From contig MU004193.1 of the NCBI GenBank assembly GCA_010093605.1, forward strand, positions 467,321 to 531,320: a stretch of 64,000 bases of DNA, read 5' to 3'. The notes under the pieces are model-generated. The model ran no database searches, was not told the origin of the DNA, and saw only the letters and a program-made list of their open reading frames with translations. Source of the stretch: Lophium mytilinum. Taxonomy: Eukaryota. Of this stretch, positions 11,136 to 27,000 are shown piece by piece. Position 1 is the stretch's first letter. Each line of letters starts with the position of its first letter. The translations under genes and the position numbers were made by a program.

Positions 11136-14100
11136 TCAGGCGCCCTACCGGCCCGCAACTTAGCTCAAAGACGTTTCGCCGATCCCTTTAGGAGTCACCG
11201 TTTTTAAGCCTTTTTAAAGCACCCAGTCTAGTCTTGCATTAGCGCATAGCCGGAGTTAGCGCTTATAAGGGGCCCCCTACTAAACTAAGACCTCTAAAGT
11301 GCTAATATCTAATATATAATTATGCATACTATAATAATAAAATATTAATATATTTTATTTTTAAAGCTATTAAGTAAGCTATTAAGCTATATATAAGCTA
11401 TATATTATATAGAATATCTAGAAATATAGTATATAGCCTTAGGGGCTTATAGATAGCTATATATTATTAGAAAACTCTATATAGCTAATTTTATATACTA
11501 GTTCTTTACCTATTATACTTATTAGCTATAATTTTCTCTCTTATTATACTAAGAGCTTAAAAAGTATCTAAAAGAGCACCTAAAAAGATACTAAAAGTAC
11601 TATAAAACGCACTAAAAAAGGGCCCTCTCTATACTATACTAGGTGCGCCTATTTCTCTTACCTAGTAGCCGCCTATTATTCCTAAGGATTATATTTCCGG
11701 GCCGGATTTCTATACTAGAGGCTAGCCGCCGAGGCCCTTAGTAGCTAATAAAAAAGAGAAGAAAAAGAAGAAGAAGCTTATAGCTAAGCTATATTAAGCT
11801 AATAAGTTTACCTCTCTATATAGGCCTAATAAAGAGAAAAATAATACTACTAAGCTATAAGAGCCTTAACTTATTAAGAACCTACCTACTATATCTATAA
11901 GCTAGATTTCTATAGCTTAAGTTAATAAAATTCTATTAAAAATTATTACTAGCACTCTACCTATAAGCCTTCTTATAGCTACTACTAAGGCTAGAGAAAT
12001 TATATACTCTAAGGCCTATTTACTACGCTATTTAAAGTAATTTAGGCCGCCTAAGGCCCTAGAAGAATAGTAAGAGGCTAAGGATATTTATAGACTTAAT
12101 AAGAGAGCTAAGAATCTTAATAAGTATCTTTCTAGGGGTTATAGTTCTAGATAGAACTTACTATAGCGGATTTTTAAGCTACTATTCTCTCTAGAGCTTT
12201 TTAAGTATTATAGAAAGGCTATAAATGCATATATAGCTATATAGCTATATACTAAGAATATTAATTTAAGTAGATAATAGAAAGGTATAAAGAAAAGGGC
12301 CTAGAAGAATATTAGCGCCGCTAAGCTAATAATTTAGGTTAGAATTATTATCTATATTAGAGTCTTCTAGCCGCTAAGAATAGAGAATATATAGAATTAA
12401 AGAGATAAGTAGCTAGTATATATAATTACTAAGTATATAAGCTACTATAGGTAGAAGTAGATTAAAAGATATTTCTATATTTACCTAGTAAGTTTTTAAG
12501 GTGCAAGGCTTATAATATTACCTTACTAGGTAGTAGTGTATAAGTAAGCCTTTTAATATTATAACTAGCTAAGCTTAATTTAAGCTTATTTTCTAACTAA
12601 TTAAAATTATAGAATTAATCTGTATCCGGCGCCGCTAGTATAGCTAAGAAACTGCTAAGACGCGTCCCTCTATTTAAAAAGCTTTAATTCTTTATAATAA
12701 TACTCTAAAATAACTTTTAATACTATATTATATCTAGATCTATAGTCTTAATTAATAAGATAATAGTATACTTTACCGGCCAAAGCTCTTACACTATTAA
12801 AATACCCGGAAAACCTATTTCTAAGAGCTATAAGATCTTTTCTCTCTACTAGTATAGCTACTACTACGCCTTCTAGTTTACCTCTAGAATTAATAGAGTT
12901 TACAGCCTCTCTTAATATACTTAAGCCCTTAACTATACTCTTAATACTACTAGTAAGGCTATATTTAAGCTTTATATATTACTACCTATTTATTTATAGC
13001 GCTATATTCTCTACTATAATAACTACTTTACTAATATTAATCTCTTTAGCGCCTTAAGGTCTATTAGAATTACTATCTATAGTACTATAAGGTCTAACTC
13101 TATATATTATCTAGCTGCGTATAAAGCTATAGATAAAGTAAAATTATAGCTTTCTTTTAATCTATTCTCTAGAGTAGTTATAAGAGCTCTAGGCTTAGAG
13201 AAGGACGTCCTCTTAATTATATAGTAAGATAAGAATCTTATAAGATTTCTAACTACTACTTATAGTACTTAGCTATTAAACTATAATAAGGTTCTTTGCC
13301 GCCGCCCGTATAGTTATACGGCGTAATTAAAGAAGATTATTACTAAGATATAGAGTAATAATCCTATTAAATCTCTATATCTTTCTTAGCTTTTAATTAA
13401 CTATAATAACTAGATAGAGGGTGTTAATATTTATAATTAGCTGCGCAGCTATTATAATACCTAGATTATAAGTATATATATTTAAATACCGCTCTTCTTC
13501 TAGGTATTAGATATAGTAATTATTAATACCTATATTCTCTCTAAAATTATATTCTAGATATCTAGAAGTATCTTTTTAATAGTATATAGAAGATTCTATA
13601 TATAATTAGTATAGAATCTTATTTAAATTAGCTACTAAATAATATAAAAGAATGCAGGGCCTCTAATAGGCCTTATAATATTCTTAAAGTAATATAAACT
13701 AGGTTAATTCTAGCTAAATTATATAGGCTACTACTAAGGCGCTCGCCGCCCGTATATTACTAGTAAAACTCCTCTTCTAGCTATATGCCTGCTTAGTAGA
13801 GGCTATATTATCTAGAGAGAAGTATACTTAGACTATAAAATATAGCTATACTACTATTTTTATAGGTAGAAATAGGCTTTTAAGTTACTAGGCTTTTAGA
13901 AAAGAATAAGAACTATATATAGCTATAAATTATATCTTTTACTACTTTATAGGTAGTATATAGAGCTCTTTTATAAGCCTTAGCTATATAAGAATTAGAT
14001 AGAAAGGCTATAGTAAATAGAATAACTATATAATTCTATAGTAAGGCTGTATAGCTTTAATTTAGGCCTATTCTAGCCTTAATACTATTAAAAATTAGCT

Positions 14101-22350: not shown

Positions 22351-24015
22351 TTATTGCTCCCTCTGAAGTCCTTTCTCTAGATCCACAGTTCCATAGTCTT
22401 GTAGATCGGCACCAACATCTGGCTCTTTTGTCATGCAGCTCTCAGGCCGTCTTAAAGTTTCATGAGCAGACTCTGGTGGTTCAGTGTCATGTTCGTTTAT
22501 TCGAAATGTCGGATCTCCGGTCTCCAATCGCGTCGGCTCAGCAGTTTCGCGTTGGTCGGCCATATATTCATCGTACGTCTTGCCCGCCTTCTTGGCCAAG
22601 CGTCGAATGTGACGTGTTCGGTAGAGCCACGAGATGTGAGAAGCAAAAATACCGAGCTCTAAGAGGAGGCTGTATGCCGTCAGCTAGGGACGTTCTGATC
22701 GAAACTCGCCCATGTCCGGCGACCCTGCTTGTACTATGAAAGTAGCTTACCATATAATATAGAGTATGCCTCCAAGATAGTCAAAGGTGTGTTGTGCAAC
22801 TTGTACCCATGTCAGTAATCAAGTTCGGTCGCACTGATGCATAATAGACATACCGAGTGCCATCAACGAGAAGAAGGCCCCCGACCAGTCTACGGTAAGA
22901 AATATGAAGTCTACGCAAGTCGTTAGTATGGCAGGAGATCGCAGCTAGACAAGATCTGAATCCAGAGTCATACCGATGCCAATCACCCGGCCTTTCCTTT
23001 TGGCCAATTCGAAGTAAGGCGGGATGAGACCTAAGGCAATGATGACAGAGGCTACAATGGCCATCAAAGTGAGAGGCCAGGAAACTCCTCTTGCGTAAGG
23101 ACCCTGCTCATTGTTAGATAGGTGAGGTTACCAACATCGCAGAGATCGGAAACAGTACTCGTAGCACGCAAATGAAAAGGGCCTCAAGGCCTCCAAAAGT
23201 ACACGCAAGCACTCCCACGGTCAACGTGGTAGTCCAGACTCTCCAACCGCTTCATGGGCGTCAGCCGCTGCAACCCTTCGCTTTCGTTGCATATTTACGA
23301 ACCTATGATAGACCAAGGTCTGACCCCAACAGACAAGCGACAGAAAGCCAAAGCACTGCGGTTGTACTTGAAGTGGGATGTTGAAGTTCTGAGAGATGTT
23401 AGACGCATGAAAATGATTGTGGGATAGATCTGTTGACCTGCACAACAGCATAAACGCCGAACGGCACCGAAGCTTCACAAAGATTAGTCTCAGTATGGTA
23501 GTGGTTATCGCGTGGGACGTACCAGAAGCCCACATCATCACCATCAGGCCGGGAAGACCGTCAGTCTTCTTTGTGCGCCAATTTCGCCATATCCTGGGTG
23601 AATGAGACTCTGGATTCAAGATTAAGCACTACACGTCACTTACTGAGGTACAAGCTGACGTTGCTAATTAGTATAGTGCTCGAGCTAATCTTTCAGCGCA
23701 TCTCTCACCTGAATACACCAGCAGCTGACCCGAACACATTAGAACACGTTCCATTAGGCGGATGAAGGGGGCAAATACACTGAAAAGAGTCAGTGCCACC
23801 TCGGGCTCTACTAATGGGCCTACTTACTAGTTCCAATTGTCTAAAGGATCGCGAATTGGTTGTTAGATATTCATCTTTTCAGAACTCGGCTAACGTTCAG
23901 AGTTGGACCTACCCCAAGCACATTCGCAGCCTGCCATAGCGTAAGTTAGGAAATGATGCATGCTGAAGAGTCAAGGATCACATACAAGCGGGATTGAAGT
24001 TTGAGGACCCGCCAT
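22351..24015 (-). CDS. PQ-loop repeat membrane protein (cystinosin/Ypq-like transporter family), about 13 exons including micro-exons
   Basis: Spliced N-terminus MAGPQTSIPL|AANVLG|TIGT-I-CWCIQ|LVPQ|IWRNWRTKKTDGLPGL from exons 24015-23986, 23930-23913, 23840-23828, 23779, 23724-23709, 23654-23644 and 23593-23523. Later exons give NFNIPLQVQPQ, LIPPYFELAKRKGRVIGI and DWSGAFFSLMAL; stop at 22351. Confidence 0.88.
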
Positions 24016-27000
24016 CCGATATCGAAAGACTTGTTAAAGCTACTGGGACTGCTAAATGAAGAGACGGATGATAGACTTGGAGATGGAAAGGCAACGATAT
24101 GAAACGAACAAGTCAGGAGACCTGGGAGGCTCAATGAAACATGAGGGGGAGGTGAGGTTGATACAAAGATCGGGGAACACAACGTCGCCAATAAAGAGAC
24201 GGCCGGCCCGAAAAGTGGGCACTTTCTCAACTACTCGGGCCACGGTGCACAGCTAGAAGGAGAATGGACATGTGGACTGCAAAGCATCGCGTCAATCTAA
24301 ACACGATACTTTCAGCCGGATACGCTGCACGCCACCGTCATCAAGGGAGGCGTTCTGGCGCTCAGGAGTCACCAGTACAGCATCCGCAGAAGATGTGCAC
24401 GCGGTTGATGCGAATTGGGCGTGGGGCCGACATCCGGCGTGAGTTTACAGCCTGGCCTTACGGATTTTGGACAGGTGTATGATCAGGGCGGGCTGGCTGC
24501 GCCCTGGTTTGGTTTGGCATTTTCGCAGGAAGCGCCGCCGCCGCGTGGTAAAGCGCAGGTCCCGCGAGATACTGAGGTTTTAGCATCAGTAGTGGCGGGG
24601 GGAAATGTACCCTGCATCCGTAGTATTGTGGTGGTGAAGGTGGTTGGAGAAGCTAGGGAGTGGGCCCATCAACGGCAGCGATGTCACGTCCATGTCGGGC
24701 CTGATGATTGGCTGCGCGTAGGTTCAAGGATGTGCTGATGGCAGACAGGGGCCCGCAGAGTTCGTTCAAGCCTCCTTTTAGCTCGACGTGACTTGAAGAG
24801 TACGGCGTCTGTCGTGCCACCCACAATGCGTACTGCGCTGCGCTGCACTGCTGGAGCCGACGCCCTGCAGCCGCGCCGTGGCTCGACTTGACCGCAGAGA
24901 TTCCTCCGGGAATGATGCTGTGGAGTGTCCCGGGCGGCGAGAGAGCATAGCTGGGAGAGTCAGCTGTCCCCACTCTCGTCGACTATCGCACTCCAATCGC
25001 TGCCGCCTGTTCGCCTGCCCACAAGCGCCATCGATTAGTACCTCTGGGCATGGATGCACTCCCTTTAATGCCTCTAACTAAGTGCGGTTGCGGCGTCCTG
25101 GAGAGCGCCATGGCAGCGCTAGGTACTGAATTGTCCTCGTCTGTGAAGTGCCCGCATGCGCTGCAAATCAGCTGATTGGCAATCGCGGAGGTCACGATTG
25201 TGCTCCTGGCCAGCTCATTGGAGCAATGAGAGTGTCGAGCGTGAGACAAAACAGTTGCAACTGTGGCAAGACGGCAGAGAAGGGGTGCCCGATCCACCCA
25301 TCCCGAAGACAGGCAGGACAGGCGGCATCGACGAGGCCATGTGAGCGGGGATGCTGTCGAGGCCTCGCATCCCGGCGGCTGGACCGATTGATGGGCCTTC
25401 TCTGCTCCACTTCCCCTCTGAAACCGCCGAGCTCGAGCACAAAGCAGTCGCCGAGCCTCCCAGCCCGTCAGCCCACAGCGGCTGATGCGCCTCTTACACC
25501 TCGCCCTGGCCACAAATGCGGAGATGCGGTCGGGGAGATGCTGCGGCAGCTAAGGTTGTCTGTCCATTGTCGCCCAGGCAAGCCGAGATAACGGATATCG
25601 GAATGCCCAATTGGCCGCGGGTGCTGATCGACTCTGGGCGCCAGAGGGAGCAAACATTCTGATGCAGCCATTCGATTCCGTATACTGAAAACGTCCAGCT
25701 CTGGAGCATTATTCCCATCCGTGCACAGCAAACTGCAGCCCGCCAGCACCGGTGCTCGTGCATGGACCGGGGAGGGGAGGGAGACGGGCCTGTGCCCACC
25801 TAGCTGCACGTCATCCATCACGGCTTTACCCCAGGGGCCGAGCGTCGGTGGTGGTGAGAGTGTGGTGCGAAAGAAAAAGAGGCCTTGCCACTGCTACGCG
25901 AGCCGCGCAAACCGCCATCCTTTCAGGCCTCCTTGCTCTGCTACATCTGTTGGGACTCGGGAATGGGCCGAAACAGGCCTTTGGGACTCCCACAGCCAAC
26001 CACCACGCGAGCAACACCCCAGATCGACGAACCGTTGTTCGCCATCGGCCTGCATGCCCTGGCTCCAATCCAGACGTACAGTTGGAGCCGCTCGTTTCTA
26101 GAGTGATTGTGGAGTACAGTCGCGTCGCGGATGCTCTCCCGCGTACCGCTCTCCACAAAGCTGCAGCTGGCGTGCAGTGGCCTCATGTTTCCGGTGCCGC
26201 GATGCAATATCCCCTTAGACATATATGTACTCCATCTCGTGTTCGCCAGGGCTATAAGATGCTTCCGCGGAGTGACCGCCGAGATCCAGATCCAGATATA
26301 CATGTATCAATACGCATGCCTATCAGAAACCGCCCCCCGCATATCTCTGAACCTCTGGCGCCTTCTGCGGTTGCAAGAAAAGAATTCTGCGTGAGCCGTG
26401 AGTAAGATACATCTCGCACGAGAACGAACATGGCCATGCTGCTCGTCGGTGTGACCTCAGAATAGATCCCGTACGCCAGTCCGATTTCAAATCCAGGCTG
26501 CAGCAGTTGTACGTTTGCTGTCTTGCTGACTGCTACAGCCCCTTGACGCATCCTTTGGTTAGTTTATCTCGTAAATGCTGCATAACAAAAGGCTTTATAA
26601 CCCTGCAGAAGCTATTTCAGCCAATAGAATCTCTCTCATCGACGTCCAGTACCATAACTTACCTCCGCAGCCACCTGCACGTTAACCACAGCATGCGTCA
26701 ACAGGCTGTAGATGGCATCAGATTCAAGCCAACGCGACGGCCCGCCCCCAACCCCCCTTTGACGCCCAACGGACCGCCCTGCATCATCGAGCAACCCTAC
26801 TCCTCGTGTAACGGAGGTGAACTGGCTGCGCGTGGCTGCCGTTTGGGATCCCGCATGCAAGCCCATTCTGCCAACGGCATGGCTCTGGGAAAGCCACATC
26901 GACGCCCCGGACAACGCATGCCCAATGCGCCCGGGGAAAGGCACCATAGTCTGGAGTCGAGTTGCACCAAGCTGACGCATTGTCGTGTTTGGAGCGTGGG

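Follow-up and report, generated by a model that had tools for sequence, protein, structure and literature searches.

A constitutive exon of one nucleotide, backed by mutational proof, has been described in the APC11 gene of Arabidopsis thaliana (Guo and Liu 2015, PMC4674806), and one-nucleotide microexons of APC11 and VPS55 have been documented across land plants (Yu et al. 2022, PMC8831610). Among fungi, an exon of this size has been reported in CYP621A of Fusarium, in a paper that calls it the first in a fungal gene (Nelson and Syed 2026, PMC12940212), and a long-read annotation of Coprinopsis cinerea contains 13 exons of 1 nt in 13 genes (PMC12230235), counts which indicate that one-nucleotide exons are not unique in fungi. 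Adjacent introns are also found in the stwintron, in which one intron lies within the donor, branch point or acceptor of another, so that the outer intron can be spliced only once the inner one has been excised (Fekete et al. 2017, PMC5587772). Here, we analyze a stretch of 64,000 nucleotides from Lophium mytilinum (GenBank assembly GCA_010093605.1, contig MU004193.1, positions 467,321 to 531,320 of the forward strand), referred to below as the window, whose minus strand carries a gene for a PQ-loop membrane protein, with the ATG at 24015-24013 and the stop near 22351. In this gene a single T, at position 23779, is placed between two complete short introns, and we conclude with high confidence that it is a genuine, constitutively used one-nucleotide exon. 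Such an exon had been proposed for this position from the sequence of the window alone and considered very rare; its genuineness is borne out by our analysis, but it is less exceptional than implied, as exons of this kind have already been published in plants and fungi. The locus is a new, unusually widely conserved case of a known, rare kind, the phenomenon itself being already in print. Literature searches for PQ-loop proteins in combination with the terms stwintron, micro-exon or microexon, which did not cover subscription journals, returned no report.

The T and the features that surround it are the following (coordinates refer to the window).

23828..23840, minus strand: exon 3, 13 nt, whose last base is the A of a split Ile codon; its edge at 23828 is set by the RNA joint 23779|23828.
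23780..23827, minus strand: intron 3a, 48 nt, GTAAGT..CTGAC..TTTCAG, phase 1; its excision is seen directly in the joint 23779|23828.
23779, minus strand: exon of a single nucleotide, T, which supplies the second base of the Ile codon A-T-C.
23725..23778, minus strand: intron 3b, 54 nt, GTATTT..CTAAT..GGTCAG, phase 2; present in the RNA contig 4.
23709..23724, minus strand: exon 5, 16 nt, whose first base C completes the split codon and is followed by Cys-Trp-Cys-Ile-Gln; its edge is fixed by the RNA joint 23654|23709.

Re-reading of the minus strand reproduced all these positions as they had been given in the original prediction. The T is preceded by AG and followed by GT, and each of the two introns possesses a donor, a branch point and an acceptor of its own, again as predicted: in intron 3a the CTGAC branch point is located 10 nt before the 3' site, in intron 3b the CTAAT branch point is located 14 nt before the 3' site, and both acceptors are CAG. 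The T is needed to keep the reading frame open and to obtain the protein sequence that is conserved in the family. If it is skipped, the exons of 13 and 16 nt add up to 29 nt and the frame is shifted, and if the second intron is retained, a TAA is encountered, which can be read directly in the sequence; both consequences had been foreseen correctly. With the T included, one Ile codon is split over three exons, the A being contributed by the 13-nt exon and the C by the 16-nt exon.

The protein family provides an external measure of this spacing. The translation of exon 11 is 100% identical to the L. mytilinum protein P0001, and the translation of exon 7 matches the Pfam PQ-loop family PF04193 with 22.3 bits against a cut-off of 22 (E = 1.1e-4); the homologues P0001-P0003 and others carry PF04193 as a precomputed assignment. 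In the Pfam search with the translations of exon 11 and of the last exon there was no PQ-loop match, exon 11 giving only a weak ABC2_membrane_5 hit below the cut-off. The closest full-length relative, P0002, which is encoded on a 1.5-kb contig, could be aligned to residues 1-304 of our model with 76% identity and without a single gap. To yeast homologues, the model exhibits 44-47% identity over about 250 residues. In P0025, P0037, P0044, P0051 and P0053, yeast homologues whose genes carry no intron here, Gly-Thr and x-Trp-Cys are separated by exactly one Ile or Val, and the motif of P0025 is exactly the one predicted for the window. The spacing of the model agrees with that of these homologues, in favor of the original prediction. 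The Lachancea homologue among them, P0051 (44% identity to the model over 244 residues), is named 'Ilt1p' by its source; yeast Ilt1p/ILT1 is presumably YDR090C. A single Ile or Val at this place was also found in P0002, P0007 and P0011, which we take to be transcript-derived because of their short length and uninterrupted reading frame.

Direct evidence for splicing in the window comes from X1, a single public run from one study, which is stored as assembled contigs and covers 59% of the sampled words of the gene. The contigs lack the seven downstream introns at canonical sites, which is why we take the run as RNA-derived, and they differ from the window by no letter and by no insertion or deletion. 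Contig 4 (196 nt) lies on 23629-23654, 23709-23779 and 23828-23925, i.e. introns 5 and 3a are gone, while 3b, intron 2 in its entirety and 15 nt at the start of intron 6 are kept. Its joint 23779|23828 skips 48 nt with CT..AC ends on the plus strand, at a depth of 227 and with 71 letters on the shorter side, and demonstrates that the donor GTAAGT and the internal CAG are used, leaving the T on exon 3. Contig 5 (734 nt), which corresponds to the mature form, aligns with its first 30 letters to 23564-23593 and, in the region of exon 1, with letters 89-404 to 23985-24300, with 58 letters unplaced between them; since the letter at 23985 recurs as the first base of exon 2, one position can be assigned either way, and the micro-exons total 59. 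This is the sum of 11+16+1+13+18, the lengths of the exons in the micro-exon cluster (18, 13, 1, 16 and 11 nt in the order of transcription) that codes for the first transmembrane helix, and intron 3b is accordingly absent from contig 5 as judged from its length. A mature form in which the T is skipped would need 58. The two RNA checks suggested together with the original prediction have thus both turned out in its favor: the run contains a contig that joins 23828 to 23779 along with a mature contig of a length that corresponds to 59 nt of micro-exons, and an intermediate that lacks just one of the two introns exists in the form of contig 4, in which the first (3a) is gone and the second (3b) is still there.

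In a second organism the same exon can be read letter by letter. We scanned metagenome contigs with an alignment of eight homologues and obtained 77 loci, one of which, L002, is 100% identical to L065, L066 and L067 in gapped blocks and also lacks an intron of the upstream neighbor gene; L002 is the spliced form of the gene present in L065, L066 and L067. All layouts of L002:3000-3155 on L065 were enumerated with GT/GC-AG introns of 20-400 nt, and exactly one canonical spliced alignment was found, with exons of 31+, 18, 13, 1 (the T at L065:581), 16, 11 and 66+ nt and introns of 50, 71, 49, 55, 53 and 51 nt, the homolog of intron 3b being among those removed. This evidence is independent of both run X1 and Lophium mytilinum. 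Further pairs of spliced and unspliced contigs were sought among the related loci, and only L002 with L065-L067 was found. The presence of the T in the mature mRNA, joined on both sides, is therefore seen at the level of letters in the L065/L002 pair, and in the window through the direct joint between exon 3 and the T and through the length of the mature form.

One way to do without a one-nucleotide exon is to assume one intron of 99 nt, from the donor GTAGGC at 23823 to the acceptor at 23725, which makes the T intronic and results in the protein sequence T-S-N-C-W instead of T-I-C-W. We enumerated every GT/GC...AG intron within 23840-23709, and this is the sole in-frame, stop-free single-intron solution in the segment. 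The earlier claim that there is no in-frame alternative AG thus holds true in that no alternative acceptor exists, but it overlooked this one in-frame alternative, which uses a different donor.

23818..23823, minus strand: alternative donor GTAGGC (rejected) of the 99-nt intron, the only in-frame single-intron solution.

This donor begins four bases after GTAAGT; its use extends exon 3 to 17 nt, turns Thr-Ile-Cys into Thr-Ser-Asn-Cys and requires 62 instead of 59 nt of micro-exons. Donors of the GTAGGT type are used elsewhere in the gene, e.g. in intron 2, but none of the joints of the run X1 contigs uses 23823/23824, the flanking exons are separated by 58(+1) letters in the mature contig where 61(+1) would be needed, and the added residue was seen in no correctly built homolog. 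Moreover, the joint 23779|23828 is proof that splicing makes use of GTAAGT and of the internal CAG, and in the 17 distinct related loci described below the single-intron alternatives need weak donors or added residues and always alter the conserved motif. We have rejected the GTAGGC donor on the grounds of the missing joint, the wrong mature length and the extra residue, and the 99-nt intron appears extremely improbable.

Out of the 77 metagenome loci, 65 contain coding DNA for W-C-[IV]-Q and 12 do not. The layout with a 13-nt exon, an intron, a T, an intron and a 16-nt exon was found in 23 of these 65, which amount to 17 distinct sequences when grouped by near-identity; their first introns measure 48-75 nt and the second ones 48-96 nt. 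The other 42 loci are uninterrupted at this site, and none of the 65 has only one of the two introns. The comparison of orthologous loci that had been recommended for testing the conservation of AG-N-GT therefore gave a clear answer, with AG-T-GT kept in 23 of the 65 informative loci and no intron at all there in the rest. In the window and the 17 distinct loci taken together, both AG-T-GT and the 13-nt exon are invariant (18/18), the split codon is always [A/G]-T-N and encodes Ile or Val, and the two-intron model always yields the conserved 10-residue motif. Where the pattern could be matched, the upstream branch point is situated 10-13 nt from the AG (17/18), and the second donor, most often GTAAGC, has A at +3 in 17 and G at +5 in 16 of the 18 sequences. 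An AG acceptor directly precedes the 13-nt exon in all 18 and an intron directly follows the 16-nt exon in 16 of them, which means that the neighboring intron positions are shared too. In shuffled spans, any AG-N-GT with at least 40 nt on each side arises in approximately 10% of trials per locus; the naive product of 6e-19 overstates independence, as the loci are related, and the AG-T-GT pattern is far beyond chance.

The conservation also bears on the suspicion that the structure is an artifact, i.e. that a base is missing from the assembly in a neighboring exon, or that the gene is a decaying pseudogene, and that AG-T-GT is coincidental. A one-base assembly error is the commonest general cause of apparent frameshifts, and the public model P0001 is aberrant at its N-terminus. 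Against this, the RNA contigs agree with the window in every letter and show neither insertions nor deletions, the layout recurs in 17 distinct, otherwise diverged loci, and expression of the gene with splicing of its 13 introns produces an undamaged frame of 308 amino acids, which leaves this explanation with practically no chance of being correct.

The full gene model comprises 14 exons and a coding sequence of 927 nt, i.e. 308 codons with a single terminal stop, and all its 13 introns are 48-81 nt long, start with GT and end with AG. Beyond the features listed above, it is composed of the following parts.

23986..24015, minus strand: exon 1, 30 nt, opening with ATG; the N-terminus is the same as in the relatives P0002 and P0003.
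23931..23985, minus strand: intron 1, 55 nt, GTATGT..GGCAG; gone from the mature contig 5 (by length).
23913..23930, minus strand: exon 2, 18 nt; an exon of identical size is read letter by letter in the relative L065.
23841..23912, minus strand: intron 2, 72 nt, GTAGGT..TTTAG; still present in the partly spliced contig 4.
23655..23708, minus strand: intron 5, 54 nt, GTGAGA..CGTCAG; the joint 23654|23709 is found in contig 4.
23644..23654, minus strand: exon 6, 11 nt; a matching 11-nt exon is read letter by letter in L065.
23594..23643, minus strand: intron 6, 50 nt, GTAAGT..ACCCAG; its 5' part is kept in contig 4, and the edge at 23593 comes from the joint in the mature contig.
23523..23593, minus strand: exon 7, 71 nt.
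22351..23593, minus strand: exons 7-14 and introns 7-13; the seven downstream introns are spliced in the RNA contigs.

Elsewhere in the window, positions 12001-14000 form an AT-rich block with a GC content of 0.276, compared to 0.43-0.59 in the rest of the window, which could be a degenerate repeat or an AT-rich isochore.

As to the mechanism, both introns that flank the T are ordinary short fungal introns, recognized across the intron. In at least some molecules, the upstream intron of 48 nt is removed in the first step, with the T staying on the 13-nt exon and the 54-nt intron remaining in place, which is the form represented by contig 4; in the second step, the downstream intron would be removed via GTATTT. 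In most relatives the intronic portion of the second donor is strong, and this would offset the non-consensus T at exon position -1, a compensation expected from the pairing of donor sites with U1. The two reactions would have to be consecutive, because the complexes that recognize the two introns should not fit side by side: only 10 nt lie between the branch point of 3a and the T, the AG of 3a is immediately adjacent to the T, and the donor of 3b starts right after it, so that simultaneous processing would be sterically excluded. Between neighboring spliceosomes in the cluster, the same exclusion would force a stepwise, alternating order, and the alternating pattern of contig 4, with 3a and 5 gone and 2, 3b and 6 kept, is what mutual exclusion between neighbors predicts, in one contig of one run.

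The T may, on the other hand, be a real exon whose two introns are removed in no fixed order, either independently or with the downstream one leaving first in most molecules, so that the intermediate seen is one of several. Each intron has complete signals, contigs drop rare variants and cannot show absence, and the one-nucleotide exon of Arabidopsis APC11 is spliced correctly even in rice protoplasts, which suggests that no special machinery is needed (PMC4674806). However, the only intermediate among the joints is the one with the upstream intron removed first, whereas no joint 23724|23779, expected if the second intron is spliced out first, is listed in run X1, contigs showing presence only and leaving the absence unproven; and with the 3a branch point, its AG and the 3b donor so close to the T, simultaneous occupancy seems sterically improbable. 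We regard the lack of a fixed order as unlikely, albeit by no means negligible.

In the region 23594-23985 of the minus strand, un- or partly spliced contigs were observed on the micro-exon cluster with a word depth of about 150-230, beside 692 for the mature contig, and no contig of run X1 covers the interior of the 3' introns. These contigs may reflect slow splicing of the cluster, although contig depths cannot rank the parts of a gene.

Several points weigh against our interpretation of the exon and of the order in which its introns are removed. RNA support in the window is confined to one run of one study in the form of assembled contigs, and the record of this run is typed 'RNA? (a guess)'. 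The mature contig supports the micro-exons by its length only, the letters across the cluster not being displayed. The order of removal is deduced from a single contig, and a de Bruijn contig can in principle thread reads of different molecules; contigs cannot show absence, and a pathway in which the second intron is removed first may exist as well. The steric exclusion, too, is inferred. Finally, the second donor of the window, GTATTT, is the weakest of the 18 and has no G at +5.

The stepwise removal, with a 5' exon for the second reaction that exists only after the first, is reminiscent of recursive splicing and of nested introns. At a zero-length ratchet point, AG and GT are juxtaposed, so that a new 5' splice site is created by the first splicing event and the mRNA keeps no nucleotide of it. 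In the gene analyzed here the arrangement is AG|T|GT, and the T is retained. Stwintrons do occur in Pezizomycotina (PMC5587772), but the primary transcript contains the donor GTATTT (in relatives GTAAGC or GTATGY) whole, not interrupted by the first intron, and one nucleotide is kept in the mRNA, while neither a stwintron nor a zero-length ratchet point leaves any. Already before splicing the second donor has all its bases, and the two introns are one base apart; the original prediction had rejected a [D1,2] stwintron on the grounds that the base before the first GT is A. We consider a stwintron or a recursive-splicing ratchet point to be very improbable.

The distribution of the layout was analyzed with a FastTree tree of 99 rows, comprising 52 loci (pseudo-proteins assembled from tblastn segments) and 47 named proteins chosen from 172 retrieved; loci with fewer than 190 residues recovered, loci without the motif and identical duplicates were left out, and the supports are FastTree local values only. 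Loci with the one-nucleotide exon form two clades. The first (13 rows) contains the window, Mytilinidion, and Pleosporales such as Parastagonospora, Alternaria, Pyrenophora and Plenodomus, and the second (8 rows) contains Sordariomycetes such as Cercophora, Pleurostoma and Diplogelasinospora. The uninterrupted loci group with the yeasts, with Tuber and Morchella, with Xanthoria, Lasallia and Stereocaulon, or in one unnamed clade. L001 and L002 are placed inside Pleosporales; L002 is the spliced transcript discussed above, and L001 may be one, too. According to the taxonomy look-up, Lophium (Mytilinidiales) and Parastagonospora belong to Dothideomycetes, Cercophora and Pleurostoma to Sordariomycetes, Mollisia to Leotiomycetes and Xanthoria to Lecanoromycetes, all six in leotiomyceta, while Tuber belongs to Pezizomycetes, outside leotiomyceta; the other species are assigned to their usual classes.

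On this tree there are four state changes as coded, and gain and loss are indistinguishable. From the shared odd layout, the shared positions of neighboring introns and the lack of single-intron forms we infer a single old origin followed by joint loss of both introns; two independent gains of the layout may have occurred instead. With none of the 65 loci having a single intron, there is no hint as to how the intron pair arose. A bolder scenario, which we offer as speculation and consider improbable, is that the whole micro-exon cluster (18, 13, 1, 16 and 11 nt) is ancestral to leotiomyceta, predating the split of Dothideomycetes and Sordariomycetes, and that it has been kept because it forces an obligatory alternating removal of introns (3a and 5 first; 2, 3b and 6 later). 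In this scenario, the slowly spliced 5' end of the pre-mRNA, with its detained introns, would serve as a timer or checkpoint on the amount of the transporter, and the one-nucleotide exon would represent the limit at which there is no room for two spliceosomes at once.

Some of the related loci show variation in the cluster that deserves mention in its own right. L036:1050-1250, on a 1.5-kb contig, has only the counterpart of intron 2, with exons 1-2 fused and exons 3 to 7 fused; it represents either a lineage in which the other introns have been lost or a transcript with a single intron left in. In relatives, the cluster also includes introns of the GC-AG type: the donor of intron 1 in L065 (L065:380-429) is GCAAGT, and the donors after exon 5 (the 16-nt exon) in L063 and L073 are GCAAGT and GCGAGT. 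Two closely related Alternaria-like loci differ from each other, L003 being devoid of introns 5 and 6 and L004 being devoid of intron 5 with intron 6 kept, which is due either to recent intron loss or to partly spliced RNA contigs.

The expectation that such an exon is normally misannotated agrees with the public models of P0001 and its homologues, which are disturbed at this site. P0001 (388 aa), which is the public model of the L. mytilinum gene itself, begins with approximately 105 residues that have no counterpart in the homologues, and the motif as well as exons 1-5 of our model are absent from it; the blastp match between the two starts at residue 26 of our model and residue 106 of P0001. 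The NCBI model of the gene is wrong at the site of the one-nucleotide exon. In the Mytilinidion model P0003, exon 2 is followed directly by exon 6, and the genome-derived models P0012 (Amniculicola), P0015 (Parastagonospora), P0065, P0066, P0067, P0083 (Mollisia), P0091, P0101, P0103, P0126 (Cercophora), P0147 (Lasiodiplodia) and P0158 are disturbed exactly here. A strict regular expression classified 66 of the 172 proteins as non-canonical, a figure that includes N-terminal fragments and yeast proteins with Ala for Gly and thus is not a count of misannotations.

What the locus adds to the published cases is the depth of conservation in Pezizomycotina, the cluster of five micro-exons, the visible splicing intermediate and the repeated misannotation of one family at one site. 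It shows that the fungal spliceosome can define an exon of one base, inside a run of five exons of at most 18 nt, and that the arrangement persists across at least two classes of Pezizomycotina. It explains the faulty public models of a PQ-loop transporter in the first transmembrane helix, and it can serve as a natural test case for gene finders and spliced aligners, as well as a compact, conserved system for the study of ordered removal of abutting introns, with a partly spliced intermediate in view.

Compared to the plant systems, the PQ-loop gene resembles APC11 in that a constitutive one-nucleotide exon between canonical GT-AG introns is needed for the frame and has been missed by annotation, but the plant exon is an A inside a region of 422 nt, whereas here it is a T between introns of 48 and 54 nt, and mutational proof is available for the plant exon, the evidence here coming from contigs and sequence comparison (PMC4674806). 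The host is a fungus, with introns defined across the intron, and the exon is part of a run of 18, 13, 1, 16 and 11 nt. Plant lineages without the one-nucleotide exon of APC11 lack both introns together (PMC8831610), and none of the 65 loci analyzed here has one intron. With VPS55, the gene shares a conserved one-nucleotide microexon in the N-terminal transmembrane part of a membrane protein (VPS55 being small) and a well conserved donor, and in VPS55, too, a missing microexon has led to wrong N-termini and wrong helix counts in annotations; VPS55, however, is a different gene family from a different kingdom and its microexon is used alternatively in some plants, while no alternative use was seen in our data (PMC8831610). 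Stwintrons likewise consist of two short introns that adjoin each other in a filamentous ascomycete and are spliced out one after the other, but in a stwintron nothing is left in the mRNA, whereas here both donors are intact and one base is kept (PMC5587772). The 1-nt exons of Coprinopsis belong to a basidiomycete, and the passages that report them contain neither gene names nor a conservation analysis (PMC12230235). CYP621A of Fusarium is likewise a gene of Pezizomycotina in which a one-nucleotide exon supplies the middle base of a conserved codon, for which an intronless relative served as a length marker along with RNA reads, and in which nearly all public models are wrong at the site; its exon, however, is a G (AG-G-GT) reported from Fusarium and its teleomorphs only, while the T of the PQ-loop gene is found in clades of Dothideomycetes and Sordariomycetes (PMC12940212). 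Unlike in CYP621A, a splicing intermediate is visible for the PQ-loop gene. Since the exon of CYP621A was introduced as the first in a fungal gene, the T at 23779 is to be regarded as a further one.

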